This document shows positions 3,713 to 61,710 of a stretch of DNA of 64,000 nucleotides, one piece after another. Numbering within the stretch: position 1 is the stretch's first letter; each line of letters begins with the position of its first letter. The stretch is from Amoebophrya sp. A120. Lineage: Eukaryota > Protista > Dinoflagellata. A program made the translations under genes and the position numbers. Under the pieces are notes generated by a model that saw only the letters and a list, made by a program, of their open reading frames with translations, was not told the origin of the DNA and ran no database searches. The stretch lies in assembly GCA_905178155.1 (NCBI GenBank), contig CAJINV010000008.1, positions 2,467,207 to 2,531,206 on the forward strand, read 5' to 3'.

Positions 3713-6700
3713 TCAGTCTGGATATGGTAAGAAGGCTGGTTCGAGCTTGAAAGGCACTGGAAACCAATTGCTACTTGTTGTCGAACAGTGATTTGAGTTC
3801 GAGTCGGCTACATAGACACCGTTCTGCAGTTCTCGACCCCAGTGCTGCTCGTACTCCAATCTCGCCAAAAACTCCTGGTAGACTGACAGTTTATTGGCGT
3901 ATTGCTTGTTCTGTTCACCTCCTTCAGCGCCGCTCTGCAGCTGCATTCTCCTGTACTCGGCGTCCAGAAAGTTCTCAGCAGCCTCCACCTCTTCCACATC
4001 CAAAAAATTGTAGCAGTTCATACCCTGGGGCATCTTTCCGGAATTTCCGAAGCAGGCACGGTGAAGATCGCCATGCACTGCAGTTTTCGCATGCGTGCTC
4101 CTAAAGAATGCACAACAGAGGCAGCAGGAAGCGCCTGTGGTTGCTGCCGGCTTTGCGCGATGAAAACGGTTCTGGTACGAGTCTTCGAAAAATCTGCGAC
4201 AACAGGCACCTGGTGATATGCATTTGCGTTCAAATTTGCGAGTGATGCGCAAGCACAAGGTCTTCTCGTAACCGTCATCAAATCACAAGCACCAACAAAC
4301 CTACGAAAAGTCATCCACCTTGTTTCTTCAGAAACGCGGACAAGAGTCCCTTCGGCACGCCAATCTCTTGATCCGCAGCCGCCGGTGGACCCTCCTCTTT
4401 TCGTTGATGTCCCGGACCGATGACCGTCGGTTTAGGGTGATCAAAAACGGGAAACGTGGAAATTTCTAGAGCAGTGGGAAACGAAACGTCCACGACACAC
4501 GCGCAGCTGTCCGCTATCACGCTGTCCTCGCCCTTTATTGACCACGTCCACGTCATTGTGACAAGATGAGCGGGCGACACGGACCCGGCCCGCGCATTGC
4601 AGCGGCCTTCTAGATTATCAAGGACGAGACAAACCAACTTATCCAAAAACGCTAATAGTCTACTGATACATAGATTGATATATACAGCTTTTAGGAGCCT
4701 GCATGGCTTTCTTTCGGTCGCCTGCGCCGAAAAAGGAAGTGTTGTCCTCGGCGGGGCCGTTCAACTCTCGGCGCCGGCGCTGACCTTTTTTGTGCTCGTC
4801 TGAATCATGCTTGTTCTAGTGATTTTGCAACTTCTTGGACGAGAGGCCCTGTCTCTTTGGATACAGCGTTTTCGTGCCGAGTGGCCCACAAATTCCCCAC
4901 TGCACCAGGTCCACTCCGGCTACTTCATCGCGTCCGGTTTGCGTTGCGCCGAGCGTAAAAACCGGCTTGCCAGTGGCAAGATCCGATTTGTACATCGGGT
5001 AGATCAGGCCCCCGAGCTGCGTCACGGTATGCGTCAGGAAATACCATCCGCTCACCTCCGGATAGTTTTCGCTTTTCAGCAAGACCTTGGCGGGTGGGTG
5101 GGTCGTGTCTTGGATGCAGGATTCGAGCCGCTGATCGGCTTGTTGTTCTTGGGCCTTATCTGCTACCGTGGAAAAGTTGCGGGCTCTTGGCTCAGCCATG
5201 TTGCTCAGCTGACGGCAAGGTATGATCTTTCTCCCTTCTAGTACCTTCGCTGGAAGAAAAGCTAAAACGCCATGATCGCTGCTGGTATCCTCGTGCTCGG
5301 TTTCCAGTGGACGTTCACGCTTAGCTGCGGTCGCGCAGGAGGGAAGCGACGAATCTGATTGCTTTTTTTTGCTTTTCTTGTCACCAACCAAATGCCCGCC
5401 TCCGTTGTGTTGTGTTTCGGATGTCGGTTTGTTTGCAGACCGATTGACGGGAACGGGTGCAACCTCCCGCTTCACTTGTTGCAGTGGATGACCCAAAAAG
5501 CCGATACGTTCTGACTGCGTTTTAGTGCAAGGCGAGTGCTGCTCGTTCTTGATCCGCAGTGTTCGCGTTCCTGCCTCCTCGCGAGAGTTTTGAAAGATGA
5601 GATCTTGCTTGACCCGAAAACGGGGTAATTCCGGCGACGTTGGTGAAGTGGGCTCTTTCTTAATGCGCACAGGATCGCGCTTGCTCGTGCATTCAGGCTC
5701 GCAGTTGACTCGGCTGCGGCGACGATCAGCGGCCCCGGGTGAGGTGGGCTCGCACTTGATTCGGGTCGTGGGAGCGCAGTTCTCTCGCTCTGTGGCCGAA
5801 CTCGTGGTGATCAGCTCTGGGTCCCGCTTGATGGATCTTTCACTCGTCACGTTTTCAGGAGGAGGCACTTCTGCCTTGAATTGAACATCGGGAGAACCAG
5901 AAGACTCAGCTTTCAACAAACCGGATTCGCCTACGATGGGTGACACGGACGACGTTCCCTCTTGCTTGATGCTGGTTTTTCCGCTTTTGTCAAAATCAGG
6001 AACAAAAGACGCTGCTGAATGATGCTGGCTGGACCCGGCCTGCCTGGACAGGGACGCCGATGCGTCCTCACATGCGTCGTCACCAGGATTTTGCTTCTGC
6101 TCTCTCTTGATCCTGGAACGGCCGTCGACTAGTTGTGGCGATTCCGGCTTTTGTTGTTCCTTTACCTGTGAAACACCTGCTCCCGCTGCTGGTTCCGGTT
6201 CGGCAGCGCAGACAACTTGTGCGTTGTTGTGATGCTTGCTTCTCGTGCGTGTAGTCGTGATTTCCGAATGCGAATCCAGATGCTGTTCGAGCATCGCCAA
6301 ACGAGCTGCGCGTTGCATTTCCAACCGTTCTGCTCCTTTTTCGCCCAGCACACGCATGGCGTAGCCGCTCTCGAGCAGAGTCCTTGCACTAGAGCTTGTC
6401 CACTGATTCCCATTCGCGTTATCCGCAGCAGCTTTACTGTTTCTGGCGCTGCCCTGCTCTGCATCTCGAATTCGTCGTAGCAACCACACCAAGACGGCCC
6501 GCTCCTTGAAATAGGTATATAGGCTCTCGGAAATTCATGTGAGAGTCCATTTCTGAAAATTTAAAATTCGCAAACTTCGAAACCCTCTGCGAATCTTATA
6601 ACACGCGCCCAAAACCCGGCCCCGGCGAACCCCATTCAGCTTCCAAAGTCAACAAGGCCCCGAAAAGGGGGCTTCGAGAACTCTGAAAGATACGCGCCGT

Positions 6701-9700: not shown

Positions 9701-9832
9701 ATTTGTACGGGAGGCCGCAGCAAGTAGGTCTCGTTCTCGATCGAAGTAGTTGCGTATCTCGGAAAAACTTCTGCACAACCATGGCGATTCTGGCTGGTTG
9801 TGTGCTGTTATTTCATGAAAAAGAAGCAACAT
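3713..9832 (-). CDS. Multi-exon hypothetical protein interrupted by a 3.1-kb and a 224-bp TAT..ATA insert; both gene ends uncertain
   Basis: ORFs 9599-9832, 4816-6492, 4311-4646 and 3713-4258 join in frame: ...NEIFT|YFKERAVLVWLL... across 6513-9645, ...TKTL|VCLVLDN... across 4635-4863, and ...KKQG|ACCRR... across a GT-AG intron at about 4210-4317. Confidence 0.65.
4640..4863. mobile_element. Degenerate 224-bp TAT..ATA inverted-repeat intron
   Basis: Both ends read TATCCAAA inward. The flanks CAACT/CAGCG match at 3 of 5. Removal joins two ORFs in frame. Confidence 0.6.
6855..7513. repeat. 195-bp tandem repeat, each unit carrying a 73-bp hairpin
   Basis: GACACACATGAATTTCTCAGG starts at 6855, 7050, 7245 and 7440. 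Hairpins lie at 6856-6928, 7051-7123, 7246-7318 and 7441-7513. A degenerate further unit lies at about 6660-6855. Confidence 0.95.
7519..7765. repeat. Chain of overlapping palindromes (49-bp unit alternating with its reverse complement)
   Basis: Symmetry centres fall at 7567/8, 7616/7 (AAAGC|GCTTT), 7665/6 (AAAAG|CTTTT) and 7714/5, exactly 49 bp apart. Confidence 0.92.
8200..8490. repeat. Degenerate C-rich ~21-nt minisatellite inside the 3.1-kb element
   Basis: Units such as CCCGGACCACCTCCTCTACAA, CCCAGACCACTTCTTCCACAG and CCTGGACCCCCTCCTTCCAAA recur and translate as PGPPPxx heptads. Confidence 0.55.
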
Positions 9833-10370
9833 TTGTTGTTGTTTTCAAAAAAATTGCGCATCGGTATCGTAGGTGGGAATGTTTTTCATGCTCGTAGATG
9901 GGCTCCAAGAAATTCACACATCATTATTTACGGTTCGAGTGTTCGGTTTATTCTCGTACAACGCCATGATCAACGATCAAAAAAAAATCCTCTCAAAAAC
10001 AAAAAGCAAAACACACGAAAGTGATAATTACCGGTACCGGATGGATTGCAGACGTTCGCAAATGTCTGTGTCGCACTGTGACTGCCTCTGTACCATTTCA
10101 ACGATTTCAGCAATCCCTTATGGGACCTGTGCGGCTTGTGAAGTTTCGCGACAAATTTAGGAGGCAAAAGGTGGGTTTCTAGATCAATGTCTTGACTCAC
10201 TTATTCCTGTGCAGTTGTTTTCTTTCCGTCGGCTTGTTCTTTTTACGCCTCGAAGCCATGCACGCTGAATTCAACGATCTACACTTACAAAAAAAGGTCT
10301 CGAGGCCATATAAGGCAGTGCAAATGGAAATGCTATCGATCCACGTCCAACCTTGAATGGGCGCATAAAA

Positions 10371-11198
10371 CTACACATAGTTCCTGCCATTTTCATTCCG
10401 ATTATCTAATGGCAGCAACTGTCGCGAGGAAAGAAACTTCTTGACGCGGCATACTACTTCGATGAGCTCGATGCAGCGAACGTCATCCGGAATGTCATTG
10501 CTTGTCGGTGCTGGCACATTCGCCGGCAGCACGAGATCTTCCGCCGAGACAGCCGCGCGTGACATCGTTTTTGCGGTGCGTTGGCCGCAAGCAGCAGATG
10601 ACTTCAACCCGTCCTCGATCGTCCACAGCGGTGGCTTTTCGCCGCTTGGTGTTGGTGCTTGTGCTGAGAAGGCCGAAGAAAAAAACGTCAATGGTTCTGC
10701 CGCGTTTTCACGGGTGTGGCAATGGGCAGGGACTTGCAGGGGGCGCCTACTCGTCGACGAAGAGGAAGATGAAGACGACGCCGATGATGATGCGGAAGCC
10801 CTGCAATTCTGCAGCTGTAGCTGGTACTTTTCTGCCTTCGCGGCTAGTTCTCGCCGCTCGTGATTGTGTTGGGCATGGAGATGGTTCCGCAGTACTTTGG
10901 CCTTTTCCGCAAATTCCGGCACAGCGAGCGGCGCTGCGTGTCGCGAATCGATGGCGACGAGGCCTCCACATGTTCCACCCCCCCGCTTTTCCTGGTACTC
11001 CGTTCTGGCAGGATTCATCCTAGCCCAGTTTTTTTTTCCGCCCTTGCCCACGGCCCACTCGTAGCCATACCAAGGGTGTCTGGTATTCTTTAGAACACCG
11101 ACGTCGACCCACTTGTTCGGGGGAAAAGGGCGCACGACGTTCTTGTTTGAGGGCGTAGGTGGCCCAGAGGGGCCAGCGTTCCTCATGATCTCCGCCAT
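10371..11198 (-). CDS. Hypothetical protein (275-aa ORF, possibly one exon of a larger gene)
   Basis: ATG-initiated long ORF with coding-like composition, a Trp-rich N-terminal segment (KWVDVG...PWYGYEWAVG...NWARM) and a poly-Ser tract. No family recognised. Confidence 0.5.
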   Translation of the reverse strand: MAEIMRNAGPSGPPTPSNKNVVRPFPPNKWVDVGVLKNTRHPWYGYEWAVGKGGKKNWARMNPARTEYQEKRGGGTCGGLVAIDSRHAAPLAVPEFAEKAKVLRNHLHAQHNHERRELAAKAEKYQLQLQNCRASASSSASSSSSSSSTSRRPLQVPAHCHTRENAAEPLTFFSSAFSAQAPTPSGEKPPLWTIEDGLKSSAACGQRTAKTMSRAAVSAEDLVLPANVPAPTSNDIPDDVRCIELIEVVCRVKKFLSSRQLLPLDNRNENGRNYV

Positions 11199-12139
11199 CG
11201 CTTGTTCTTGCCCGAACAGAGTATTCTTTTTCGCCCCACCAAATAGTAGAAATCACGCACAGAGGAAACTCAAAAATGCTAAGATACAGACTGTAGAAGC
11301 CGCTATCTTGTATTCTTGCATCCAATTTCGAGATCGAAAAAAGAACAGAAGCATGGCGAAAGCAGAAAAGCAAGCGGAGAGTGCCAGGTCAGTGGGTCAT
11401 TCGGTATTTCTATTTTTCTGCTCGGTATGAAGCCGAACGTCTTCACCGGCATCAACCTACATGTAAGTACTTACACCCCATACTCGTTTGCCGAAGAGAT
11501 ACAGGTCGATCATGATCTGCGGCTCCAGCCATGTTTTTAGCTTCGCCTGCAGATACATGAACCTGTGGGCGCAAGGCGAGGGCGCGCGCTAGCAATCTTG
11601 GAATAAATACAGAGAATCAGAATGGTCTGACTTCAATTTTCAAGACATCTATGAAATTGAAACCAGCACACTTTGGAGAGTAATTGCAATGGCCGCAGAC
11701 ACAATTAACTTGCAGACGTAGTTCTCTCTCGCTCAACTAACTATGTCGCAGAAGTCAAGGAAGCAGTTTTTTTGATTCTTTCGGTTCTGCCAACATTTTG
11801 ACACGTCCATTTTGAATTCAAAGAATGATGTTGCTGTTGCAGATAATGAAACACGAACATCTGCTGGTGTCGACAGCGACGGTTCATGGTAGACCCACGT
11901 CCAACTTTGAGAGAGATTCAGAGTAGGGACAGCACTCCGCATCAAATGTTTCTTTTTCTTGTTGCTCGGGAGCATTTATTACTACTATTCGATACAAAAC
12001 TACGGAGTTTCATCTTCTGTTGACGAAGATCAACGTGACAAACTGCGCGCACGATCAGAATCGCGCCCGTTCCGAAATCGTTCGATCCCACAGCTCAGGT
12101 CCTGAAGCCTCTTGACCGGAATCCTTGGACCTAAATGCT

Positions 12140-13300: not shown

Positions 13301-13785
13301 GCCAAAATCGTGCCAAGCGTGTTTGAAATACTGCTTTGCCATTACTTGTTACAGGCCAGAAAGACAAAGCAGACGCTTGGACTGGTGGCGCATCATATCC
13401 GTTTCTTGGCCTTTCCGTTGTTCTTTCATTTACCGTATATCTGCTTTCAAAGCTCTTTCGTCCTCTCTCTTTTCGTTTACATGTGCCTCTCTCTGTCTCT
13501 CCTGGTCCTGAGGAAGGACGCACGACTCTTGAAATGATGGTCTTGAACACCAAAGCTTGTGAATTATCTTAATAAAGAGAGAGTCAAATCCTCCGCGCGC
13601 AGATCGTAGCGGGGTTTCATTTTGTGTCGTCCTCTCCTGTGAAGATGGTGCTGTGGGAGACATTCATATAATTCATTCATGCGTGAGCTTTGCCTTGGTT
13701 GAGATAACAAACACCACGATAGGGGCTATTGAAATTGCGTCGCCTCGCAATTCGCAGTAGAAGTAGAATTCATTCCTTCGGTTTT

Positions 13786-45637: not shown

Positions 45638-46486
45638 ACAGCAGCAGCATATCGACCTGCTTCTGTCTGTGGTCTTCTCCGGCAGAAGCTTACAACTTCA
45701 TCGCCAACCGCAAAGCAATACGAGACTCTTCGGTTTCTTTCGCTGCACTCTCTTGCGCGTGAAGGTGAACGCGAGCCAGGCTGCTCTGCAAAGCAATTAT
45801 ATCTCTCGAGGGCAGGAGAAGGCACGACTTAGACTTACAACAGGCTGCAAGCGCAAACACCCTTCCCGCCAACGAAGCAAGGCCGCGGCTTCCACGGCCA
45901 TCGGCAACTCCAGTCCCTTCGCTGCTGGCTTTTCCGCCGGACGAACAAAACCCAAAGTCGGTGACCAGAATTTCGTTTGCTCCCTGCCGTATCTTTGATC
46001 GAAAGCTTGGGTTGGCGGAGACGGCTGCCGCGTATGGCTCTTTTCGTTTCTACATGCCAAAACAGCTGCGGTAGCTGGTGACACTTCACAAATTAATTGA
46101 GATTCATTCTGTCACCGCACAGAACGGTCACATGCCACGGTAATGCCGTTCTGAAAAAAGCGTGTAGACCACATCATACAGAAATGAAACCTTATCTTTG
46201 GGAACGACTCCTGTGTCTTCCTGTGAAACTCCGGCTCCGCATTTTTTTGTTGCCGCGCATCATTTTATCAACAAGTTTCGCTTCGCGGTAGGGAGAAGCA
46301 CTTTTGAATTTAGGGATAGATGATTCAACACGTGACTGGTTTTCACAACCGTCTTCTATCGATAAACCACTGTAACTGGATGTAAAATTGAAATCATGTA
46401 GCTTGCGTCTAATCGTCGTTCTTGGCTTGCTCGACATACGATACTTCCAGTTGCGATAAAAAAATCATAAAACTGATCCACTTCGC

Positions 46487-49400
46487 CTAATTCCCCGGCG
46501 CCCCTGTCGTCCCGGCAGCAGTAAATGCGAAGCGAAACTGTGGCCGTGCGGGCGCAGCGGAGAATGCCATGGGAGATTGACGTCCGATCGTGGGAGAAAG
46601 TGCACCGGGCCGGGCAAAATTCCCGATGCCAAATTTCACTGGGGAGGCGAAACCAATCTGTGTTGTATGATAGAGGTTGGGTTTGAGATTACATTTACAA
46701 CGAATGGCTGGACAGCTTTATGTATCTGTATGCTCGCCTTGTTATGCACTCACACTCACACTCACGCAGCAAGCAGAAATAGGAAGAGCAGGTCGGAGAT
46801 CCTACCCTCATCTATTTTTCCAACCCGTTAGATTTATTCCCACACTATGTATACATTTACCATACTTCATGCAACAGAACCAGCAGCGTTCCTTTCTGTA
46901 CCGAGGGCTGAAACTGCGTCCCGACCCGTATCGAGGGCTGCGTGTAGGTTGCATTCCCCTGCTGCTGCTGCGTAGGATTCGCCGCGGACCCACCCGGGCC
47001 GTAATTTGGATTTCGCCCTTGCGTGGAAATTCCTGGAAAATAGAACCCCACAGAGGACTGCTGCTGTTGCTGCGGCGGGTTCCCTGCAGTCATCCCCGAA
47101 ACGCGCGGTGGCTGCTGGGCCGGTGGTCCTCGTGACCCCTGTTGCGAAGAGGATGACTCTGCTCGCTTCACTTCAAACGTGATAGTATTGGTTCCCGGTG
47201 TAGTATCCGGTTGTTGCACTGCTTTCTTGCTCCCGTCCAAACCCGCAGTACTGTCTTCAATGACTGCACCTGCGGGGTGGAACCGTGGAAATAAAAGGTG
47301 AGCAGATCGATATTTTCTTTTTCACCGACTGCAGAAATGACATTGGATGCGAAAACCAACGCACAGCTAAAGCTGTGGCAGCAGCAAAAGCATTGCCACT
47401 AAACTACTACAAACAATACGACACGATCACGTCCTGCTCGTACCTGGCACATCACTGTCACTACTGCATCTGCAAAATAATCATCTTCATCGAGAGAGTC
47501 AGTTATTTTCCAATCCTTCTGCTTCTAAAGAGAGCGTAAAACTTGCACCCTCTCGTCAAGAAATAGCAGTAGCTTTAACTTCATACTGGAAAGCATCGCG
47601 CCACTGGTCCGCGGTTTCGTCGCGCCGTAGCCCGGAATAGTTCTGTCTAGCCCCGGACTCCGCATCCGTGGGTTACTGTCGCTCAGCATTGTTCGCTCCA
47701 TGTTGTTATCCCGCACCGCTGGTGGAGGCACCGCAGGTCGGGAGGGCTTGCTGTGATATTCACAGAACAGGTAAACATACACTTTCCGGATCCCTCCTAC
47801 GTACGCATCTCCATCGCGGAAACCGATTTACAATATCGAAAGACCACAGTTGTGCCTTTCCACCCCTTCTGTACTGTCATACATGAACGTGAAGGACAAA
47901 TTCAAAGATGAAATTCTACCTGGTATAACATCACATATCAAGAAGTCTCTGTCGGTTGTTGTACCTGGCAAAATTTCCGGGAGACTGTGGCAAGTAGGAC
48001 GCCTCGAATGCGTTCGGATTCAAAGTCATGCCCTTCGCTTTGCTGCTGGCACGTGATCCCCCCGTCGAATCCTCCATGCTGGCCCTGACAAAATTCATGT
48101 TTCGAAAACATCACTCGAAGCGCTCTTCTGTCGTCGTGCAAGAAACTGCTCGGCTTGGTATCTATATGCTCGAGTGGTACCCTCGCTGTTGCAGCTCAAC
48201 CTACTGCTTGCGCTGCTGCTGCTGAATAGTACTACTACTATACATACTCGGGTGGCTCGCAAACATGCAGCACCTTCACTGAGCATCGCTGTGCTCCTGT
48301 TGCGTCAGGACAACATTGACTTATGGATGAAAACAAAACGAGGAACAAGCCCTTCTTCGAAGTATCATACTTCTTCGACTGCAAGCCGCTTGCCGTTCCT
48401 GTAGACGGCGGCACTGTAGTACCCGTGATCAAGTCAACAGGAGCTCCTGCTCCAGGTGCAGCTGCTCCCGAGGTGGTGCTGTACGCCCCACCGTAGCCAA
48501 CCGCGCTGCTCCCCGCGGTGGACATTGCTGCACCGTAGCCGTACCCACTCGTTGAAGCACTTCCGATGCTAGCATGATACCCCGTCGGCACGTTCTTCAA
48601 AAAGTCGACCTTGCCCGATCGGAAACGGAGGTTCTGGTGCGAGTTCAGGATGCCGAACGCTTTCCAACTTGCGTTATACAGTCCGTGCTTGTCCCGCACG
48701 TTCTTCCAGGTGTAGATCGCGGTCGCGACCACCGAAATCAGAGCGTATGGGGCGGACAGAGAAAAGACACGCAGCGTGACAAGTGTGGTTCTACTGTAGT
48801 GATTGGTCGTGCTGCAGTCCAGCACCCCGCATCAACAACAAGACCTCAACCGGACCGCGGGAGGTTCTTGTCATCCTAGTAGTACCCACATGAGCGATTG
48901 AATTCATCTGCATGAAGATGGACATGCAGTAAAGTAGATTTATTGCCACAGCCAGGACGGTGTAGCATTTTTCCGCTGCTCCTCCTGCTTAGTCTTTAGA
49001 AAAAGGAATAGTCAAACGAAGAAGCACGTAATCAAAAAGCGCCAGGTGTTGCCGTTCTGCGCAGTATTTCTCTCTTCGTACGTCCTCCAATTTTTCCAGC
49101 TTGTCAGTCATCACGTTCACGTCGCTGCACCTGCAATGATTGTGTTTCGTGAATAAATATGCATCGCAAAGAACATGTCTGGGTCTGGATGACTGCAGGA
49201 CCTGTACATGCTAGGCCGAGGTGGCTGTGGAGAGCGTAACGCATGTTGGGAAAGTAGAGCGTCGCTTCTTTCTAATGTGCAAATGCTAGTAATTTCTAAC
49301 ACAGAATTTACGTAACGCGCAGCTCCCCAGAAACTTCAACTTGTTATTCTCGGCTATCTGCTCCTGCAGGAAAATCTACCACAAGTAGATCGGGCCGTAC

Positions 49401-51703
49401 TAATGTCAGCCCTGCCAGTATGCTAATGTGGTGAATGAGGTGTAGTGCGTATGTATCTTCTATACATGACTCCCATCGCTTCCGCGACCTGCATGATGAT
49501 ACTGGACGGTAGCTTTGCAGCAAGCTTCCCGGACTGTGTGTTTACTACCAGCAACTGCGGGATCCCTGCACAGCTCATGCCGAATTTCTGTGCGGCGAGT
49601 GTCTGGAAATCGTAGACCCGTTGAAAGTATGCATTGCAAAACCATCGCTCTCGGAGCACAAATTATGGCGGAACGACATGACAAGAAACCCCACTTCATT
49701 CACTTTCCATTCCTTCCATTCAGAAAAATTCGATTCTTCACTCATTCAACATGCTGAGAAAAATCGTTCGGCGCTTTGTACTTATGTGCAAGTGCGATAC
49801 CTACTTTGGTTGCAATGCATAGAAAGCTGTCAACGGAGGACCCATCCGCTACGTACAGGATGGCGTCGCAGTTTTCCTGATTCAGGATTTTGTTTAACTG
49901 AACCTTGTCCGGCGCCAGTTGCGTTTCCTGTCCCGACCCCTCAAAAAACTCGAGATGGACCTGCTTGTCCTTGTGCTCCAGCACCAGATTCACAAAAGTC
50001 TTCGAATGTTTCACAACCTCGCGCGTCGCGGAATAGGAACTGGACCGGGACCCAGCTGAGGGGGGAGAAACATGGCATCAAGATGTGTCGTGCTGGGGCT
50101 ACTCACTACTTTTGGTGCATCATTGAAGAATAAACTTGACCCGGTGCATCTGCAGCTACAAAATTCAAGTAATTTCCATCCTTAACCTCCTTAGTAATCT
50201 TCATCATAAACGAAAGTTGTACACACAGATACAACACAGCAAAGCGAAGAAGACGAAAGCATCGTGGGTACTTACCCGAGGAGCCGCACAGCTTCTGCAA
50301 GAAAGCACTTTTCCCCGCTTCTGCTGGCCCGAGCACTCCAATGCGGTACGTTGGCGGCCCTTGCTGTTTCGACGCCGGCGGAATGATCATGCTGCTCTGC
50401 GCTGGGCGCGCCGCCCCGTAAAACGACGAAGAGGTTGACGCCGAGAGATTTTGCGCGGTCAGGCCCGGCTGCTTCATACCCTGCCCCCCACCCGCCGTGC
50501 TGCTTGCCAGTTGCGATGCTGCGGCAGTCGCCGCTCCTACCGCCGCAGAACTTGATGTGACGCCGCCCGAGATAGTACCGCTGTTCTCAACATTTTGTCC
50601 TGCTACAGAAGATACAAGGCCGGCCGTCTGCTGCTGGTTGAGGCTGAGGGCCATGCGGGTGATTTTGTCCAGCAAGACGTCCACACCCGCGCCGGTCTTT
50701 GCGGACACGCGGAACTGCGGCACGTTGTGCTTTTTCGCGTACTGCTCCGCGATTTCCTCGGTGACCTCCTCGTGGTGCGTGACATCGGACCGCGTGCCCA
50801 CGATCACGAACTGGCAGTTCGGACACTCCTCCGGCGTGCTCAGCATCTGCTGGTGCCAGTGTTTTACCCCTTCGAAGCTGTCCGCCAAAGTCATGTCGTA
50901 CACCAAGAGCGCGATGTGCGCATTCTTGAAAAACCCCTTCAGTACCAGTGCGGCGTCCGGGCCGCCGAACCCACAGTCGTACAGACACAGCCGCACGCTC
51001 TGGTTCGTGGCGGGTAGCACCTGGTCCAACCAGATGAACTCCGAGGCCGGGGTTGCCTCGTATTTTACCGGGAACGGCCGCTTCGTCAGCGCGCACGACA
51101 CCGCCGTTTTGCCGACCTGCGGGTCCCCGACCAGAATCACCTTGCGGGGCTGGTGCTGCTGCAGACCCGGCCCGGGCGCGAGCAACCGGTGGCCGGAAGA
51201 CGAGGCCGCCTATCCGAGTGCGCAACGGGCTCCCCTCCACCTCATTTATTGTGCAAAGTACTTTCTGTAAGTAGTTACGAACCCAGTTGTTGCACTTGCC
51301 TTTTAGTACTGTTCGCATGACAAGCACAAGTTGCACAACTCCGAACGATGTTTTACGGTTCGTGTGCAGGTTTGTCATGCGGGTATTAAAGCTGCAATGT
51401 TGTCGCTGCTTCCGCTGCTGCTCATGCCCGTCTTTATCAAAGGGGCGGGAGAGAAAAATTTGTGCACTCTCATACCGCTGTGGTGGTTGAGATCACCGTG
51501 GGTGCGGCCGTCGGAGGCGGGTGGGTCTGGTGCTGTGGCACTGCATTGCTAGTGGACGTATACGGCGCCGACGAAGCTGCACCAGAGTGTTGGTAGCTCG
51601 CCACGATGGGTGCCTGTGCGCTGTAGTCCTGCTGCGCACTTGTCGTGGTTGCTGGCGCCACATTCGTCGTCTGCGTCGGGCTGCCGAACCACGCGGAAAA
51701 CAT
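46487..51703 (-). CDS. Multi-exon protein with two tandem Ras/Rab-like GTPase domains and low-complexity termini
   Basis: Domain 1 has GDPQVGKT, YDCG, LLVYD, VGTRSD and VSAKTG. Domain 2 has GPAEAGKS, LEFFEGSG, AILYVAD and PQLLVVN. In-frame junctions were found at 51210-51475, 50056-50275 (GT-AG), 49628-49826 and several further GT-starting introns. The 3' exons are less certain. Confidence 0.75.
49628..49821. mobile_element. 194-bp TIR introner
   Basis: Perfect 12-bp TIR TATGCATTGCAA and perfect TSD GAAAG (49623-49627, 49822-49826). Removal gives VDSF|QRVYDF. Confidence 0.9.
51211..51474. mobile_element. 264-bp TIR introner with canonical GT-AG-compatible ends
   Basis: TIR matches at 12 of 15 (TATCCGAGTGCGCAA/TATGAGAGTGCACAA), with flanks CCGCC/CCGCT. 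On the sense strand it reads GTAT...ATAG and is in frame. Confidence 0.8.
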
Positions 51704-52894
51704 GACGACGGAGATGAAAGATTTTCGATCAATACTTCAGGCCAGATTTTGACTGACGAAGGAGAAAACGAGGGGTAATGGCAGCTTCCGTAAGTGATTT
51801 TGTCGCCGCCCGATTCCGCTGGAAGGGCGGGGCTCACTCAGCATACCATATCGTCTGACTTCTGGTGCTTGTCACTTTTTAGACCCTTGTTGGGCTGCAT
51901 TGTCACCAGGTGTTACAAGGCGCAAAAGCCCCTAAAAGAGGCAAAAGCAAATCAGAGTACTCCGACGCTGTGCACGAATCTAAGCATTCGTCGCGCATCA
52001 CAGGTAGACAGCAAGGAGCCGGAGCAAGTGGTCGCGCCACCGCATTCACTCCTTCGTCACCAAACTTGAATGGCACCCAATCGCGCGGCCTTGATGTCGC
52101 TCCAGTCATACAAAATGGACTATTTGACCATACAAGATAAGAGGAGGGCAAAGTAAACCTGTCCTCCAGGAGAAAAGCACCGAAGCGGTTTACGGCTTCA
52201 TCAACATTTCATCTATCTTGGCGTTGGCACCCGTTTTTGTATTTAGTGCTACGCATGATTTTTCTTCGTATCGTCTTCGTCCAAGTCACTTAAAAATAAA
52301 GAGTAAAAACTCGATTGCGGGAGTCGTGTCTTTTGTCTTAGCCTCGTTCTTGCGGCTATTTGCAGCCATTTGAGTATCGAGATCGACATCAACTTGTTGT
52401 ACCATAATAAAAATAAACTAGTATGTAATGCTCACTAAAATAACGGAAAACACCCCGGCCAGAAACTTTGATGTCACTGTGAACTGTGTAACAGTATGCA
52501 CATTTATAGAAAATCCTACAGCAACAACTTTTCGTGTATTTTGTACATTCGGGGCCTATTATGCAATCCTCTCTCTTTCAGGATCACGAAACGTTGATAA
52601 ACGGAAACCAAACGAAAATGTATACATACTCACATCATCATTCCTAGATACAACACTCGCGAAACGAAAAACTGCTCGCGATAAACCTATTGATTTTCTG
52701 TTGAAGAATGTTGCTTGCTTTTCACGACTGTGACCCAAAAAACTATTTGATTTTTAACGCAGCTTTTTCTCGCTGTCATCTTCATACCAGCATCGGTTGA
52801 TTTTGTGCTGCAGCATAGTACGTTTTTACTCCATCCTCCATCCTCGAGCTCAGCGTGGGCATAGAGAAGAAATCTCCGCCGTTCCAGCACCATC

Positions 52895-55800
52895 CTACCA
52901 CCGTTCCCGGTCGGCGGCGATTTCCTGTAATGCGTTCACCAGCAACTGGTGCCCTTTGTCGCTCCAAACCGCGTCCATAACGTGCACAAACGTGGTCTTT
53001 CCGTCGGTCCTATCAAATGTAAAAGTGTCTGGGTCTGGAAGATTGCCAGGTTTGTCATGCACATTTTGCATGACTCCTGATGTCTGTGATGCATGCCCTA
53101 GCATCACAGATTTTGTGAGGGTTTCCTGATGCCTATACCGCATGACAAATGCTCTTTCCGTGTAGCAAAACTTGGACTCTCGTTGCTGCTCATGCAATAC
53201 AAATTTTTTTAGAATCCAAAATCAGCATGACAAGGTGGATTCTTCCAGACCCAGACATTTTTACATTTGATAGGTCCCGTCCTGCTCCACCCACTTCGTC
53301 ACGTCGTAGTTCTCCACCCACTTATTGATGTAGAACATCTCCTATCAACTGTAAAAATGTCTGGGTCTGGAAGAATGCCAGACTTGTCATGCTGGTTTTG
53401 CATGACCGATGCGGCCTGGCATGTAGGACATAGCATGACAGATTCTGTGAGAGTGCTATCATGCCTATCCTGCATGAGAAACCGCCTCTCGATTAGGTCA
53501 AAAGTGGACAGCTTTGGGCAATCATGCAACACAGATTTTTACATAATTCAGATTTAGCATGACAAGTTGCTTTCTTCCAGACCCAGACATTTTTACACTT
53601 GATATCTCCTGCCCGGTGTATCCTGTGTCAGCAAATAACCCAGATACAACCCATAGAAGTACGGCGACATAGTTGAGTTCCGACTGTGAAGTGTGAACGG
53701 GACTTCAACTTTTGCAACAAGAATGAAGCAACTTTAGAAGCTACGCATCTTCACTGGCGTGAGTGAGACCGCAGGACTATTACCTTTGAACCAAGCGACT
53801 TTGCTTGGCTCGCGCGACTACATTACATACCTATCAAACACGCACTGTAGAGTAGTCCCATTTTGTTGATTCCAACGGCACAAAATCAAACACCAATACG
53901 AAAATGCCTCTCAGTATGCAAGGTCGCATCAACAGATTCAGACGCATCGCGAAAATGCAAAATTTTTATGCCGAGTCTCGTCTGGGTTATGGGTGCGTTT
54001 TTTCCGCAAAATACGGTATCGTGTTTCTTCTTGATCCAGTAGTTGAACCAGCCGTGGAAGCCCTCCTTCTTATCCCGCTTGCGCACAACTGTGTCCCACC
54101 CTCTTTCTCATGCATATCTTCCCAGCGACGACAACCTTTGGCAAGGGTTCTTGCATCATCGGGATTTGATGTGCTGTAGTCGCCGATGCCGGAACAGTAG
54201 GTATGAAGGTCGCGCCCGGAGGGCGATATTGGTAACCAAATGCGTGCGCGAAATTCTAACCAGCGCGAAAGCCTAACCAGCCGCGCGGCGAAAGCGCGGC
54301 CCAGCGGGCCGCGCTTTGGCGCTATTTATTTTTGATTACAGCCCCACTCCTTCTTCTGCAAGCCCCCTGCATGAGAAACTGGCCCCCTGGCCAGGAAGGT
54401 ATCTGGGTCATCGGGGGCTTCCGGATTCGCATTCAAAGCTTATGGGCCGCGGGGAAGTGGTGGAGCCCGCGGCGGCCCGCAGGCTCCTGCGATAAGCATT
54501 GAAGGCGAAATCCGGTCTGCTATTTCGCAGCGGGGCATCCTCTCTAGCCCCCTGCGTGACAAACTGGCCCCCTGGCCAGGAAGGTATGCGGAAAGCCGAA
54601 AACCCGCGAACCCTTCCGGGCAACCAAAATCGNNNNNNNNNNNNNNNNNNNNNNNNNNNNNNNNNNNNNNNNNNNNNNNNNNNNNNNNNNNNNNNNNNNN
54701 NNNNNNNNNNNNNNNNNNNNNNNNNNNNNNNNNNNNNNNNNNNNNNNNNNNNNNNNNNNNNNNNNNNNNNNNNNNNNNNNNNNNNNNNNNNNNNNNNNNN
54801 NNNNNNNNNNNNNNNNNNNNNNNNNNNNNNNNNNNNNNNNNNNNNNNNNNNNNNNNNNNNNNNNNNNNNNNNNNNNNNNNNNNNNNNNNNNNNNNNNNNN
54901 NNNNNNNNNNNNNNNNNNNNNNNNNNNNNNNNNNNNNNNNNNNNNNNNNNNNNNNNNNNNNNNNNNNNNNNNNNNNNNNNNNNNNNNNNNNNNNNNNNNN
55001 NNNNNNNNNNNNNNNNNNNNNNNNNNNNNNNNNNNNNNNNNNNNNNNNNNNNNNNNNNNNNNNNNNNNNNNNNNNNNNNNNNNNNNNNNNNNNNNNNNNN
55101 NNNNNNNNNNNNNNNNNNNNNNNNNNNNNNNNNNNNNNNNNNNNNNNNNNNNNNNNNNNNNNNNNNNNNNNNNNNNNNNNNNNNNNNNNNNNNNNNNNNN
55201 NNNNNNNNNNNNNNNNNNNNNNNNNNNNNNNNNNNNNNNNNNNNNNNNNNNNNNNNNNNNNNNNNNNNNNNNNNNNNNNNNNNNNNNNNNNNNNNNNNNN
55301 NNNNNNNNNNNNNNNNNNNNNNNNNNNNNNNNNNNNNNNNNNNNNNNNNNNNNNNNNNNNNNNNNNNNNNNNNNNNNNNNNNNNNNNNNNNNNNNNNNNN
55401 NNNNNNNNNNNNNNNNNNNNNNNNNNNNNNNNNNNNNNNNNNNNNNNNNNNNNNNNNNNNNNNNNNNNNNNNNNNNNNNNNNNNNNNNNNNNNNNNNNNN
55501 NNNNNNNNNNNNNNNNNNNNNNNNNNNGACCTTCACGCCTCCCGGCGGTTGCCCTATATGGTAACGGCAACTGCCTTCGCGCTGCGTTTGCTAAGCAATA
55601 TCGCAAGCGCGCAGAGCGCGCGCGCCGGCTTCGTGGGCCGGCGCGCGCTCTGCGCGCGCGCGCGCACGCACGCATTTGGTTACCAGATTACTACAGTCTA
55701 CTGCGCGTAAAGGTTTATTGCAATGCAAATGCCGTTTACGTTACCTTCTTTTCTGCTCCTATGAATGCCTTGCGAATGAGAGCAAGCGGCAGCGGGACGA

Positions 55801-58800
55801 GTTGTGCACTCTCATAGTTCAGAATAGACATTTTGAAGCTCTGCTTGTGCATGAGCTCGCACTGGGATAGGCAGCCGGCGACGGTGATCGCGCGAAGCAC
55901 CGAGTACATGCATGTGAAGACCACGTGCTGTAGTTGAATGTTAAGTTCCTACTACATGCTTATAAACTTTATGAACATCTTCCATATTAGTACAGCACAA
56001 GTACTAAGTACACAAAAAATTGCAAAGCGTCAACATCGATCTGTGGCTCGACCAAGACAAGCGTAGCACATAGTTTAATCTACACCGAGCTACATGGTGC
56101 AGGTACACAAAATCAAACATGCCCTGCACAGGCACGTACCTGCACTCCGTCCCTCACCAGCTCCTCAACGAGCGACTCCGGATCGTCCTGAATCGCTCGG
56201 GTCCGCATCTTATGCATTGCAAATCCAAATGTGTATGTGTCTGCTCGTAGTTTTGGAAACACATGATTAGTTGCACTGACACTGAGTACTTCTTTTAATG
56301 GTGCGCAACACAAAGCCTGTGAGTTGTTCTTTAACGCACATTGCTCAAGCGCGCGGGGGTTTCTTTGTCATGCAAAGCCGCGATTCCTCACGCACAGAGA
56401 TGTCGTGCAAGCTCAAGCATGATGATACTTACAGGCGATAGCAAAGTTACCGTGCGTCGCTGTGTACTAGTACTGCTGTCTACTACGACTACCTATCAGT
56501 TCTTATTCACAACAACACGATACGATAGCATAACAACTTTCCTGAGCGTGAGCCAGATCATCGATATAATTACTTAGTTTGCATTTGATATATGTTCCGG
56601 GCTCCCGGGACGTTGCCGCCGCAAAAGTCCCGACCGCGGACATCGATTACCAACAGCCCCGGCTCGTTCCGCTCAATCATCGCGGCCAGCTCCTCGCTAT
56701 GCACTTGAAATATAGTGTTTGGGTCTGGCACAAGAGCGCAAATTGAACTTCCCTAACGAAATCTGTGACGCTAGGGCATCCATCACAGACATCATGGGTC
56801 ATGCAAACATTTTTCCAGACCATTTCCAGACCAAGACATATTTGCAATGGATACTCGTGCGTCAACTGCTCGAAGTTGTTCTTTGTCGGGCTCCCCGGGC
56901 TGGCACCTATGCATTACAAAACGAGATCGCACTACAACTGAGTAAGCATACATTGCAAATTTCAAATTTTTCCTCATGTCGACATGCATCAACTCATCAT
57001 GCTGGTTCTGCTTTGTTTGAAAATGGACTTGTCAAGCTGTATTGCATTTCATGCTCGTACGATAACGGTTTGCACAGGATACTGGCGTCCACGAGCTGAT
57101 TGTCGTGCTCGTCATCCGGGTCCTCGTCGCGCGATCGCGGTATGCATGCCAAATACGCGCGGGTCGCGTGCATAGACCTGACGCAAGATCGCGAGCGAAA
57201 ACAAAGGACAGAGCAAAGCATTAAAATTTTCAGCACGAGCCGGTACCTGTGGTGTCGCTGTGCACTACCACCGTCCTACTCATATGCAGCTCGCTCGTTC
57301 ATTTCTCCGTGCAAAAGACGTCGTAGAGCTCTTCGCTCAGATGCCTTTTTACAGGGCGACGTAAAGGTTACAGTAGGTAGGACCAGCAGCTGCTCCTGCA
57401 GCTCCTGCATCAACATGAAAAATCTTGCCATCTTCCCGACCGAGAGGACGTATTTGCAATGGATACGTAGCTGCTTCTTCAAATTCGCCGAATGACTGGT
57501 GCCCACCAGGGGAAGAAACTGCTTATCCTTTTTTTTCTTCTTCCCACTAGTCGCTGATGACGAGGAAGAGCCCTTGGCGGTTGTACCACTTACGACCACA
57601 TTCTCTAGTACTCCCTTCTCGTGGAGCTTCATGTTGAAATTCATTTCGGTGGACAGCGTGCCCATATTTAGCACTGCCGAGGGATCCTCGGGCATCATTT
57701 GCAGCTCCACCGGACTCTGTTCCTTTTTGCCACTTCTCGAGGGCCCGGATGAAACGATCCCCCCGAGCCCGAGATCAAAGGTTACTGGCGGAACCACCTC
57801 CGAGCAAAAGAGCTCGGCGTCGGGATCGGATGGGACCAGTTCGTGCCCGTCTGCGCCAAGATCAAGAATCCCTCCGTTTGTAACAAGGCCAATCTGCTCT
57901 CCCGCTCCGAGCTGCTGGTGTGTCGCTGGTGGTGGCCCAGCACCTAGAACTCCGTTAGCACTTGAACCTCCCGCTGCTGTGCTACTGTTACCAGCAATGG
58001 GCACCAGGCCACTTTGACCATTCGCGACAATCTGGCTACCCCGCCGACTGTCCTGCGGCGAAGTGTAGTTCGAATCTTCGTTTTCTTCGGGAATTGGTGA
58101 TGTGGGACGCACCTATGGTAGTGGAAAATTCGTTCCCCTCTTCTATTCTCTCTAGTGAACGGTACTTCTAGCAGCAGAAACAGCCATCTTACTTCAGGCT
58201 GCTGAAGCTTTTGCTTCACAATCAAAAATCCACTCGTCCCAGACTGCAGTGCAGTTGAGGCTTCCGGAATTTCTCCTGTCACCGGTTTTTAAACCGGGCC
58301 AAAGGTACTTCTAAAGGTTAACACGGGAAGTATGTTCATGATCATGTTGTACTTTGGCATATTGCATGACAAATGACGGGGAGTGAGTCGGGGGCTGTGG
58401 CTGTCCACTAGCATATCATCATCATATTCTTCTGAATCCTCTTAAACTTGTTCTTCTGCTTTTTTAAATTGACTTTCTTTGGCGATTTCGATGAAGAGGA
58501 CTTGCTTCCCCCGCTGGGTGAAGTAGCGCTTGCGGCACTGCCCCCTCCCGGAGGTTGGAACATCATCGGAGTGGCTGAAGAAGCACCACCTGCTCCACCC
58601 GCGGATGCAGAGGAACCTCCGCCGGCCGTCGCCGACGCCCCGCTCGGGGAACCGGGCGCACTGCTACTCGCACTGTTCGCGTTGCTGGAGCTCGACGAGC
58701 TGGGCTTCTCCTCGAGCAGGTGGGTGGATATCGTGGAAGTATCTTCCGCGGCGGGGGAAAGGGTGCGAGCGGTTACTTCAGCCCTGTCGCCAATAGAGGA

Positions 58801-61710
58801 GGACGGCGAGCTATCTTCCTCCGGGACTACGCTCGGTATGGGATTCTCAAACGTTACATTCTCAACTGTTACATGGATTTGTCATGCAAAATTGCCATTG
58901 CCCTCCACTTGATCAAGGTGCTTAGCATGACAAATTTTCGAAAGGCTAAACAGCATGATACTCTGTGGAAAATCTGTGATGCGAAAGTTGCAACCTTGCC
59001 ACTTTCACTGTTGCTGTTCTTGCGTTACAAATCCATGTAACAGTTGAGAATGTAACATTTGAGAACGCCATACTCGGATTGCTGAAATTGTACTGCACCG
59101 TGTACTTGTACCTTTCATTTGTTCAAATCATCTTTTACACCGACAACTATGGTGTCTATTAATTTAATTTCTGTAGCACGACATTAGGTGTGGTGACCTG
59201 CTCGAACCAATAGTCTTGTTGTAGTACGAGATCGGTGTACAAATATTTTGCACGTTCACATCTCGCGATGTCGCGTATTATACCGCGCACTGCTGGTTGA
59301 TACGAAGCCTACAACAAAATCACACAGTCACCAGTACGTTTTTTCAACATGCAATCTTCGATTATCCATAGAGTTTTAGCGGCGCTCCTGCACACGACCT
59401 GGGTGCGACTCTAGCGCTAGGAGATCAGACATCAAACTAACACTAACAATTGCGTTCGCTCCTGTGACAAGCTCTTGAATCAAAGTTGTACTTTGGACTC
59501 TTCATTTTTCCCTTCTTCAAACTGCCCCGCTGCGACCTGCTCTTTCCGCCGGACGTCGCGGACCCGCCGTTGTTCCACACCTCCTCTTCCTCCTCCTCGC
59601 TGTCGCTGTTGTCGCGGCTCTGCGAAATGCTCGCGACTTGCGACTGGTGCAGCGAACGGCCCCACAGTGGCGTGTTTATCATGCTCTGCACTTCGCTCGT
59701 CATCGGGCTCATACAAGTATGAATGTTGCCCTTGCAGTATACAAAAAAAAATGAAATGTGCTCCGGGTAAGTAGTGTAATTCTCGACAACTACTCCAAGG
59801 TGTCACCTCGTTTTCATCTACCAACGTGCGAAAATTTTTGTGCTAAACACTAGAGACAACAAAAATCGGGATCATTTTTTCGGGTCGCCAAGCGAAGCGG
59901 GCCGTAGCTTCAGCGTGGCAGCAACATCGCCAAAATTGCGAATTAATAGACATCGAAACTTTAAAAACTGTCCCATACTATGCATGGAGCAAAGCACGAA
60001 GAGAGCAGCCCGCTGCGAATGCAAATGCTGTGTTCATGTAAAGCGGAAACAGGCCGCAGATTATAGTAGACCAATCAGAATGGAGGCACATGATGAGTTG
60101 GTTTCCTGCCGATATGCAATTGCACTTCCTGAAGGGAATCCCGGCGTTGATCACGCGCCCCCGCATCATCGCAGTGTCGTAGCTCGGTCTGCGCAGCACC
60201 GGCCTTCCAGTGGGGTCCAGGAAGTTCTTATCTGACCCCCCGGGCGTGGACGACACCGGGATCATCGGCTGCAGCGGGAAATTGTTCAGTCCCGGCAGCT
60301 ATAAATCGCAAATATGTCTGATGAGTGACAAACGGAGCACGTTTCTACGCAACCGCGCATGACAAGTTTATAGTGAGGCTCTGTGGTGCCTTACGCGCAT
60401 CGTGACAGCGAAGCAGTGCTATTCCGCAACATACATGACGGAGCTCAGGTTGTGCGGGCGTTCAGGATTACAAGTCTTGCAAGAAAATTTCTTCTCAAAC
60501 CCAGGTCGATATTTGCACTGGATAGCAGCGCCGCATTCTCCTGAATATGTGTGAACAGCTCCATCAAACTCATTTGCCCCAGCGCGCTGTTTTCCTTTGC
60601 GATGTCGTAAATCGAAACATTCGGACAGGAGGAGAGCAATTGGTTGATGTCTAGCCCCTCCTGCTGGGCGGCTTTGGAGGAATGCTGCCTGTTCATCCCG
60701 CCCGGACTGTCGGCTGATGCAGCTGCGATCATCTCCTCGCCGACGCCCGTGTTTTCCACGTTGATCGTCACAGTGCCCACACTTCCGGCCAGCTTACTCG
60801 GACTCAGAACCTTGGCGGCGATCGCCCCCTTTGCAGCTCGGCCTTGTTCCAGCGCACCACCAAGGGCGGGGTCCGTAGAGTCACTGACTCCCGTGTTGTC
60901 CCCGTCGGTGGACGAAGTCGAGACCTCTAGTCCGACCCCCGCAACCGCTCCCTTACTGCCCTTCTTGCCGTCGCCAGGACCACCTGATGAACCAGTCTGC
61001 TGGTGCGCAAGTAAAGCTTGTACTTCCCCTTGTTCATCGCCCTCCTCCTCATTCGTGGCAGAAATTTGCGACGCGTTGTCTTCGTCTTCAGAGCCTGCGC
61101 CACCTCCTCCCTTGATGTTCACAAGACCCGGCAACGCACTCACCGCGGGGATCATCAAGCTCAGCCGGTGTTCGTTGTGACGGATGAGTGGCACCGGGGC
61201 CGCGGCCGCAGAAGTCGCCGTGCCACTGCTCGTCGGCCCGGGCGAATTCGGGGCGTTCAAGTCGCCGGTTTCTAGAACCAAATTGTTGTTCGCCGCTGCA
61301 AAATTGATCTGGGCGCGGTCCTCATCGTCCTGCTCTTCCTCCCCCTATGCATCTTTTGCAAATATCGATCTGGGTCTGAACTAAAATGTTCGTTTGTCCC
61401 TTGCCCTCTTGCAAATAAAAAGTGGATCATAAATTCGGTCTTACCTCCATTACAACCTGGTCGTGCCAGCATCGTCCAGCACGACAAGAAAACTCGCGAA
61501 TTTCCTCCAACTAGTAAAGTTCTGGTTCTCCTTCATCACCTTGAGAAATCCAGAGGACCCAGACCACAACATATGTGCAATCCATACCTCCTCCTCCTCG
61601 TCGCTATCGGTTTCGTCGCTGTCCTCCTCCTCGGTGTCGTCCTGGGTAAAAACGTCCCTGCTCCCGCATTTGTGATGCAAATTTGCATGCCCAGAAGAGT
61701 ATGCTCTCAA
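52895..61710 (-). CDS. Highly interrupted gene: long acidic/low-complexity N-terminus plus C-terminal Cdc25/Acr2-like rhodanese domain; 5' end and some junctions uncertain
   Basis: Reassembled exons read FEQLTHEELAAMIERNEPGLLVIDVRGRDFCGGNVPGARNI-RTRAIQDDPESLVEELVRDGVQ-HVVFTCMYSVLRA (CX5R) ... EGFHGWFNYW ... WVENYDVTKWV...ERW*. Linking the 52895-54085 exons across the gap is inferred from motif order. Confidence 0.75.
53011..53272. mobile_element. 262-bp TIR introner, copy 2
   Basis: TSD GGTCC (53006-53010, 53273-53277) and TIR matching at 31 of 32. Removal gives EQDGT|DGKTTF in frame. Confidence 0.95.
53343..53604. mobile_element. 262-bp TIR introner, copy 3
   Basis: TSD TCTCC (53338-53342, 53605-53609) and the same TIR. 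Removal gives YTGQE|MFYINK in frame. Confidence 0.95.
54230..55685. mobile_element. GC-rich inverted-repeat-bounded element spanning an assembly gap
   Basis: A 19-bp inverted repeat TGGTAACCAAATGCGTGCG lies at 54230-54248 and 55667-55685. An internal direct repeat AAACTGGCCCCCTGGCCAGGAAGGTAT occurs at about 54376 and 54561. The flanks GATAT/GATTA match only partly. Confidence 0.6.
54633..55527. other. Assembly gap (895 N)
   Basis: Run of N bases. Confidence 1.
56211..56590. mobile_element. Degenerate 380-bp TAT..ATA intron
   Basis: Ends TATGCATTGCAAA/TATCAAATGCAAA match at 10 of 13, and the flanks match at 3 of 5. Removal joins PGARNI to RTRAIQ in frame. Confidence 0.75.
56698..56853. mobile_element. 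156-bp internally deleted relative of the 262-bp family
   Basis: It shares the GGGTCTGG/CCAGACC TIR cores and the interior block TGATGTCTGTGATG-ATGCCCTAGC-TCACAGATTT with copy 2, in reverse orientation. Flanks are CTCGC/CTCGT. The sense strand reads GTAT...ATAG. Confidence 0.85.
56908..57081. mobile_element. 174-bp TAT..ATA intron with canonical GT-AG reading
   Basis: The sense strand reads GTATCC...GCATAG, and removal gives LVDAS|ASPGSPTK in frame. The inverted repeat is weak. Confidence 0.6.
57141..57465. mobile_element. 325-bp TIR introner
   Basis: TIR matches at 14 of 17 (TATGCATGCCAAATACG/TATCCATTGCAAATACG), with flanks CGCGG/CGTAG. Removal gives KKQLR|SRDEDPDD in frame. Confidence 0.8.
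58837..59072. mobile_element. 236-bp TIR introner of a second family
   Basis: About 46-bp near-perfect TIR (TATGG..TTCTCAAA.GTTACATTCTCAACTGTTACATGGATTTGT) and perfect TSD CTCGG. Removal gives FSNPS|VVPEED. Confidence 0.93.
60300..60524. mobile_element. 225-bp TIR introner
   Basis: Perfect TSD GCAGC, with ends TATAAATCGCAAATAT/TATCCAGTGCAAATAT. Removal gives ENAAL|PGLNNFP in frame. Confidence 0.85.
61346..61586. mobile_element. 241-bp degenerate introner related to the 262-bp family
   Basis: It retains TCTGGGTC/GACCCAGA cores, with flanks CCCCC/CCTCC. The sense strand reads GTATGG...GCATAG, and both possible removals are in frame. Confidence 0.8.

Follow-up and report, generated by a model that had tools for sequence, protein, structure and literature searches.

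The introner elements of Amoebophrya sp. A120 were reported by Farhat et al. 2021 (PMC7789003) as 29,850 copies in 1954 families whose splice positions are variable or unknown; the commonest A120 repeats are given there as 4 nt, and as 5 bp in the legend of Fig. S19. Gozashti et al. 2025 (PMC12130899) likewise described A120 families of TIR DNA elements of about 260 nt that make introns, and in 22 of the 58 rows of their table most A120 families are assigned to superfamily 'Unknown'. Comparable elements are known elsewhere. The introners of Polarella/Symbiodinium and of Fritillaria (bioRxiv 10.1101/2020.10.14.339549, PMC11282704) are TIR/TSD elements with cuts within the duplication, and the spliceosome of Fritillaria can accept non-GT-AG ends (PMC11282704). 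The euglenid nonconventional introns (PMC12501133, PMC11282704) have complementary end triplets, fixed spacers that are longer at the 3′ end, free terminal bases and a proposed MITE origin, and excised introns of Euglena have been reported as circles. The Roy et al. preprint makes no mention of Amoebophrya.

The inserts studied here, in a window of 64,000 nucleotides of A120 (the whole stretch of DNA that was analyzed), are this published class. They share with the introners of Farhat et al. (PMC7789003) the host, inverted repeats that open with TAT followed by seven variable nt and at least three A, the organization in families, direct repeats of 3-5 nt, RNA-supported non-canonical ends, a MITE-like character and an open mechanism. 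What differs here is a duplication of 5 bp and a single cut register, exon/N-TAT...ATA-NNNN/exon, in which one base before and four bases after the element leave with it on the transcript (hereafter the 1+4 register). In addition, the analyses of Farhat et al. stopped at 1000 nt, whereas two inserts here measure 1.7 and 3.1 kb. The 22 of 58 rows of Gozashti et al. (PMC12130899) differ in giving automated duplications of 2-5 nt and mixed donors, with no common register. The euglenid layout described above recurs here with TAT/ATA and spacers of 1 and 4 nt, whereas the euglenid introns have CAG/CTG, spacers of 3 and 5-6 nt and a purine after the 3′ site (PMC12501133); the signature N3-CAG...CTG-N5-6 with an exon-start purine is absent from the window inserts. 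Polarella/Symbiodinium elements are constrained in their target, since they have to bring along or recruit GT/GC/GA and AG, whereas the window inserts need no particular target base. We did not find the 1+4 register in the accessible parts of the Amoebophrya and introner literature, in which figures S19-S25 of Farhat et al. may bear on it.

The window is eukaryotic, and the genes examined in it lie on the minus strand throughout. A protein named Amoebophrya sp. A120 (P0121) is 100% identical to the product of a gene at 4.8-11.2 kb, whose family counts at least four paralogues in A120 and has no Pfam domain. At about 23.2-45.6 kb lies a dynein heavy chain, DNAH6-like and about 6900 aa long, its length inflated by low-complexity Ala/Ser/Gly insertions; a search with aa 4501-5000 returned DNAH6-like proteins and no Amoebophrya orthologue. 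A Ras-family GTPase gene is found at 46-52 kb. By its motif, the C-terminal part of the product of a further gene, at 52.9-61.7 kb, resembles a rhodanese/Cdc25 domain; two short exons of this gene gave no Pfam match, and no annotated protein was found for it. The 24 TAT..ATA inserts catalogued in the window (68-3128 nt) and one lone TIR end are as follows, with duplications given as matches out of five.

4640-4863, minus strand: insert; duplication 3/5; predicted GT..TT intron; frame open only with the element plus 5 nt removed
6518-9645, minus strand: insert of 3128 nt; perfect AGGTA duplication; internal repeats; basis, annotated protein junction
10202-10453, minus strand: insert; duplication 3/5; predicted GT..TG; basis, annotated protein
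23369-23436, minus strand: candidate insert of 68 nt; GT..AG at the 1+4 register; weak; unjoined to the main dynein frame
31906-32167, minus strand: insert of the 262-nt family, in dynein; perfect TTGCT; predicted AT..CA; basis, frame
39887-40239, minus strand: insert in dynein; duplication 2/5; predicted GT..TC; basis, frame
41502-41676, minus strand: insert in dynein; duplication 3/5; predicted GT..TG; basis, frame only; spanned by 1/30 homologues
43305-43548, minus strand: insert in dynein; duplication 4/5; predicted AT..GG; basis, frame only
48746-49080, minus strand: old insert; transcript ends TAC..ATA; spliced GT..CT; joint 48741>49082 with a single placement
49158-49190, no strand assigned: lone TIR end, 262-nt family by similarity, within GT-AG intron 49131-49465; joint 49128>49464
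49628-49821, minus strand: insert; perfect GAAAG; listed joint with a skip of 199, the element plus 5 nt
51211-51474, minus strand: insert; duplication 4/5; in-frame GT..AG passed over; listed joint with a skip of 269, the element plus 5 nt
53011-53272, minus strand: insert of the 262-nt family; perfect GGTCC; listed joint with a skip of 267
53343-53604, minus strand: insert of the 262-nt family; perfect TCTCC; adjoins a 9-nt exon; joint 53343>54014 with 3 letters between
53619-54013, minus strand: insert; duplication 4/5; shares joint 53343>54014 with insert 53343-53604
54071-55816, minus strand: insert of 1.75 kb; nested repeat and 895-N gap; piece length 53 and record-length accounting
56211-56590, minus strand: insert; duplication 3/5; AT..AT at the 1+4 register; piece length 67 (X6, X10) or 66 (X5); length accounting
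56698-56853, minus strand: insert; duplication 4/5; record-length accounting only
56908-57081, minus strand: insert; duplication 1/5; record-length accounting only
57141-57465, minus strand: insert; duplication 3/5; piece start 57466 and length accounting
58114-58415, minus strand: insert; duplication 3/5; AT..TG at the 1+4 register; consecutive pieces 58109 and 58417, X10 record 2
58837-59072, minus strand: near-palindromic insert; perfect CTCGG; listed joint with a skip of 241
59738-60114, minus strand: insert; duplication 4/5; X5 piece start 60115 and length accounting
60300-60524, minus strand: insert; perfect GCAGC; piece start 60525 and length accounting
61346-61586, minus strand: insert; duplication 4/5; pieces end at 61340, one boundary only

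This list was compiled from a scan, from RNA joints and by inspection and is therefore not an unbiased census. Pairs of TAT..ATA with a perfect 5-bp repeat and at least 8 of 12 TIR matches numbered 8, compared with a mean of 1.18 and a maximum of 5 in 300 shuffles; the eighth such pair, 60113-61784, overlaps exons and is probably due to chance. TAT is not the top triplet by raw counts and ranks first of 64 when each triplet is set against its own shuffles (8 versus 0.23, 40 shuffles). Flank identity across the 24 inserts was 0.72 at a repeat length of 5 and 0.21-0.42 when any other length from 2 to 9 was taken. The ends read TAT (47 of 48), seven variable bases and then a run of A, which occupies end positions 11-13 in 30, 38, and 34 of the 48 ends. 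Three 262-nt copies, 75-87% alike, form a family, several other inserts share a subterminal motif, and most of the older ones are singletons within the window. Rfam returned no match. Extra candidates from a profile scan at 1-17 kb were dropped, being as numerous in shuffles.

The pattern was also scanned for in metagenome contigs, a second assembly, which gave at least 143 loci, with relatives up to 96% alike among the matches listed (for example at locus L050). After 18 of the 140 paired ends had been left out for an inner end or a short flank, 122 were scored, and among the matches listed a perfect 5-bp duplication was present in 103 of the 122 and a 6-bp one in none. Targets were near-random, with 97 distinct 5-mers among these 103 listed matches. 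Using a coding model trained on the window's own frames, the score for removal of the element plus 5 nt exceeded those for plus 4 and plus 6 in 66 of 102 listed copies; 43 of the 102 could be oriented, and opposite orientations were represented by 22 and 18. The base at intron position +1 was G in 13 of 43 young copies and in 37 of 126 in a wider scan, against a coding background of 0.29, and a purine at the exon start (72 of 126) was not in excess over the background of 0.54.

The MITE features are present: TIRs, a duplication of fixed length and variable sequence, and no coding capacity. From the TIRs and the fixed 5-bp duplication we infer insertion by a DNA transposase with a staggered cut, and the inserts are noncoding elements, likely spread by a transposase acting in trans. 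No transposase or autonomous partner with the same TIR was found in the window or in the at least 143 loci; Pfam gave no match for 20 ORFs, among them 13 from the 3.1-kb element; an atlas search returned no match for a mobilizer; three long perfect-duplication copies among the listed loci hold no long ORF; viral contigs gave no TIR match; and the 3.1-kb and 1.75-kb inserts had no blastn match in the listed loci. One mobilizer candidate, from a weak match, was rejected as a tandem-repeat protein. IS3EU/GingerRoot elements (PMC10045372, PMC6839031) share the TA..TA termini and near-random targets, and their integrase-like DDE enzyme is a candidate mobilizer; membership of that group fails because the usual duplication there is 6 bp, compared with 5 bp here.

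These data extend the preliminary description of the window, which had counted at least 16 inserts with TAT/ATA termini in several families, seven of them with perfect and mutually different 5-bp duplications. The 24 inserts, the three-copy family beside the motif-sharing inserts and singletons, and all seven duplications at the inserts named bear this out, and its reading of TIRs plus variable duplications as DNA-transposon insertion is borne out by the 103 perfect duplications at near-random targets. It was also right that introners of this kind have been described in Amoebophrya with an open splicing mechanism (PMC7789003). Its statement that the inserts lack GT-AG ends holds for the pair, which at the 1+4 register occurs in 1 of 24 (AG end in 2), and does not hold for the donor alone, as 13 of 24 start with GT. 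Taking these 13 as selection for GT was rejected as unproven, since G also stands in the downstream copy of 10 of 24 inserts, and its frequency in young copies is that of the background.

Four of ten listed runs (X5, X6, X7, and X10) were compared with positions 42100-62000. X6 and X10 are one sample and X5 is a second sample of the same study; all three consist of contigs, which are presumed to be RNA and which hide retained or minor forms. All 16 inserts in two covered transcripts are absent from the spliced contigs, each with the element plus 5 nt removed. The evidence comprises seven listed joints, one pair of consecutive pieces, one boundary for six inserts (five also by length) and length only for two; the joints are those listed, and 29 further joints belong to the same contig comparison. 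Removal of the element plus 5 nt reproduces exactly the coordinates 772, 1282, 1924, 2801, and 3615 of X6 record 13, with a frame of 1039 aa across 13 inserts, and the length of 3506 of record 12, with a frame of 941 aa across three inserts. The same contigs skip seven listed GT-AG introns and match the exons with 0 other letters. All eight GT-AG introns of the two transcripts (seven from listed joints, one from length) begin with GTA, three of them with GTAT. The 9-nt exon 53606-53614, between two neighboring inserts, is kept correctly in all three contig runs.

The other eight inserts, at 3.8-23.7 kb and in the dynein gene, lie outside the covered transcripts and rest on frame or annotation; none of the runs listed for the dynein stretch was recorded as RNA. 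In the dynein gene, the removal of four inserts with 5 nt each yields a frame of 6926 aa. The site of 31906-32167 is spanned by 29 of 30 homologues, 24 of them with a gap at most 5 aa away, and that of 39887-40239 by 23 of 30, both of these well-spanned sites (two of the four) falling in gap-prone regions; the homologue residues at 39887 (S 6, P 5, and A 4 of 23) do not discriminate between cut positions 4 and 5. In the gene at 4.8-11.2 kb, taking the element plus 5 nt out of 6518-9645 gives the junction of the annotated P0121 and of four paralogues, and at 10202-10453 cut positions 0-4 are compatible with the annotated protein, position 5 being excluded. The claim that all inserts interrupt coding frames stands for the frames of 1039, 941, and 6926 aa and is not supported at 4640-4863, where the annotated protein already stops at 4960, or at the weak candidate 23369-23436. 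The preliminary description had also named retention in mature mRNA and the use of cryptic GT-AG sites as grounds for refutation, and neither was seen: the 16 inserts that could be covered are missing from the spliced contigs, and at the inserts tested no GT-AG pair yields the observed mRNA. Its idea of one excision route is strengthened by the 1+4 register common to nine junctions.

Diverged 5-mers reveal from which copy each transcript base came, so that the register can be read. A transcript that takes the first four bases of the duplication from the upstream copy and the fifth from the downstream copy fits 9 of 9 informative junctions; taking 0, 1, 2, 3, or 5 from the upstream copy instead fits 0, 4, 6, 8, and 5 of the nine (p = 0.004 if the position is set beforehand, 0.024 when multiplied by six). 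The nine junctions come from two genes and two samples of one study, and 48746 is the junction that fixes the register by itself, positions 3 and 4 both fitting without it. In-frame GT..AG pairs within the duplications are unused at 51211 (listed joint), at 61346 (piece end), and at 56698 and 56908 (length only). A drift test on 36 degenerate copies gave agreeing signs with no position significant. At 55927>56140, beside 56211, the piece length is 67 in X6 and X10 and 66 in X5, the latter fitting either a shorter contig or a cut at position 5. No cut at +4 is seen for the TIR end at 49158, whose intron closes with a CAG at a distance of 27 nt; this TIR end is perhaps a remnant without a partner end. 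We consider it probable that a single 1+4 register holds genome-wide in A120, and the cell likely measures from the element ends with no search for GT-AG.

How might such introns arise and leave? The account we favor, with modest confidence, is DNA transposition followed by removal by a relaxed U2-type spliceosome measuring its cuts from the TIR ends. A DNA transposase would insert an element with TAT..ATA inverted ends and duplicate 5 bp of target; the spliceosome would cut one base upstream of TAT, whatever that base, reading TAT as intron positions +2 to +4 in the manner of the GTA donors of ordinary host introns, with the demand at +1 relaxed; the 3′ cut would be placed four bases downstream of ATA, by distance and not by AG; and the element would leave with one copy of the duplication, restoring the mRNA exactly. 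With symmetric ends, both signals would come from the element itself, whichever way round it lies and whatever the 5-mer. The transposase insertion, the reading of TAT, the 3′ distance rule and the spliceosome as catalyst are steps we infer and regard as likely. A fixed distance from branch to 3′ site is known in Entamoeba. The spliceosome is favored by the likeness between the GTA of ordinary introns and the NTA of the inserts, by the predicted weak end pairing of most older inserts, which are nevertheless removed, and by the spliceosome parts in Farhat et al. 2021 (PMC7789003), near-complete with U1 not detected. Table S4 of the same paper has T at +2 in 9 of 9 predominant A120 non-canonical motifs, which is what the register predicts; in our 24 inserts, T at +2 follows by construction of the 1+4 register. 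The absence of a +1 preference in young copies, where G stands at background unlike in a normal donor, counts against the spliceosome.

That absence also speaks for a removal that keeps the same origin and register and dispenses with the spliceosome, pairing of TAT with ATA presenting the ends to a structure-guided nuclease and a ligase, as has been suggested for the euglenid nonconventional introns. To this we assign a real but minority chance. Its layout parallels the tested Euglena code of triplet plus spacers (3 and 5-6 nt in Euglena against 1 and 4 nt in A120); AG ends occur in only 2 of 24 inserts and available AGs are ignored; both orientations occur; U1 is undetected (PMC7789003); and young copies are predicted to fold strongly. 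However, equilibrium folding predicts weak pairing of the ends for most of the older inserts, many with terminal pairing probabilities close to zero, and these inserts are removed all the same; T at +2 and A at +3 are common to the 5′ ends of ordinary GT-AG introns of the same genes; and IR/DR organization is found in 15% of canonical A120 introns (PMC7789003), whereas Euglena hybrids are rare. The still broader proposal that tens of thousands of A120 introns follow N-TAT...ATA-NNNN through a ruler pathway without GT, AG or the standard spliceosome strikes us as doubtful; if true, a kind of splicing that makes transposons harmless anywhere and in either orientation would have arisen a second time, in convergence with Euglena.

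Two further readings question the register or the splicing itself. Cuts might slide within the duplication, the agreement being a small-sample effect, as the legends of Farhat et al. (PMC7789003) to Fig. 3 (no constant position of the splice sites with respect to the hairpin) and Fig. S23 (repeats 1-5 nt from the sites), the A120 duplications of 2-5 nt with mixed ends of Gozashti et al. (PMC12130899) and the X5 piece length of 66 would suggest. Yet one position fits all nine informative junctions and T stands at +2 in the nine predominant motifs; moreover, perfect duplications make aligner placement arbitrary over six positions, which alone would give the published spread. We therefore judge sliding improbable. 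As the RNA status of X5, X6, and X10 is presumed, the joined contigs could instead derive from DNA or from strains with empty alleles. This is very improbable, given that the same contigs skip GT-AG introns while matching the exons, and that they also lack old inserts with diverged duplications.

The 1+4 register is a modest but useful addition to the published class. A single register indicates where to seek the branch point and which bases to mutate, and would guide the re-annotation of some 30,000 introns whose boundaries are now placed arbitrarily by the aligner inside the duplication. The A120 splice sites have so far been described as without signature, and the register makes the splicing question testable. 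It also explains how coding sequence is invaded at near-random sites without recruiting splice dinucleotides.

Several minor observations accompany these results. X7 (199 reads) matches a related repeat only: over 53522-53606, within the 262-nt family, its raw reads are 90-95% alike and run on into a foreign flank, so that sample has a transcript that still carries a related element. At 53011-53272 the duplication makes a GT..AG pair on the plus strand while the gene lies on the minus strand, and at such inserts unstranded aligners would call wrong-strand canonical introns. Subterminal tandem repeats of about 180 nt in 6518-9645 bear copies of the TIR motif, around a GC-rich core with broken frames; this insert may be a decayed larger element. 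Nested in 54071-55816 is a repeat, 54202-55690, that starts with TAT, has internal inverted ends and crosses the N gap, and contigs from other copies map onto it. Intron 2 of the gene at 4.8-11.2 kb (about 9806-10035) looks GT-AG, has ATA four bases before its end and is possibly an old insert turned canonical. The dynein gene has an intron somewhere between 23440 and 23730. Finally, 62200-64000 is a different element, rich in tandem repeats, part of which matches locus L018 of the second assembly at up to 88%.
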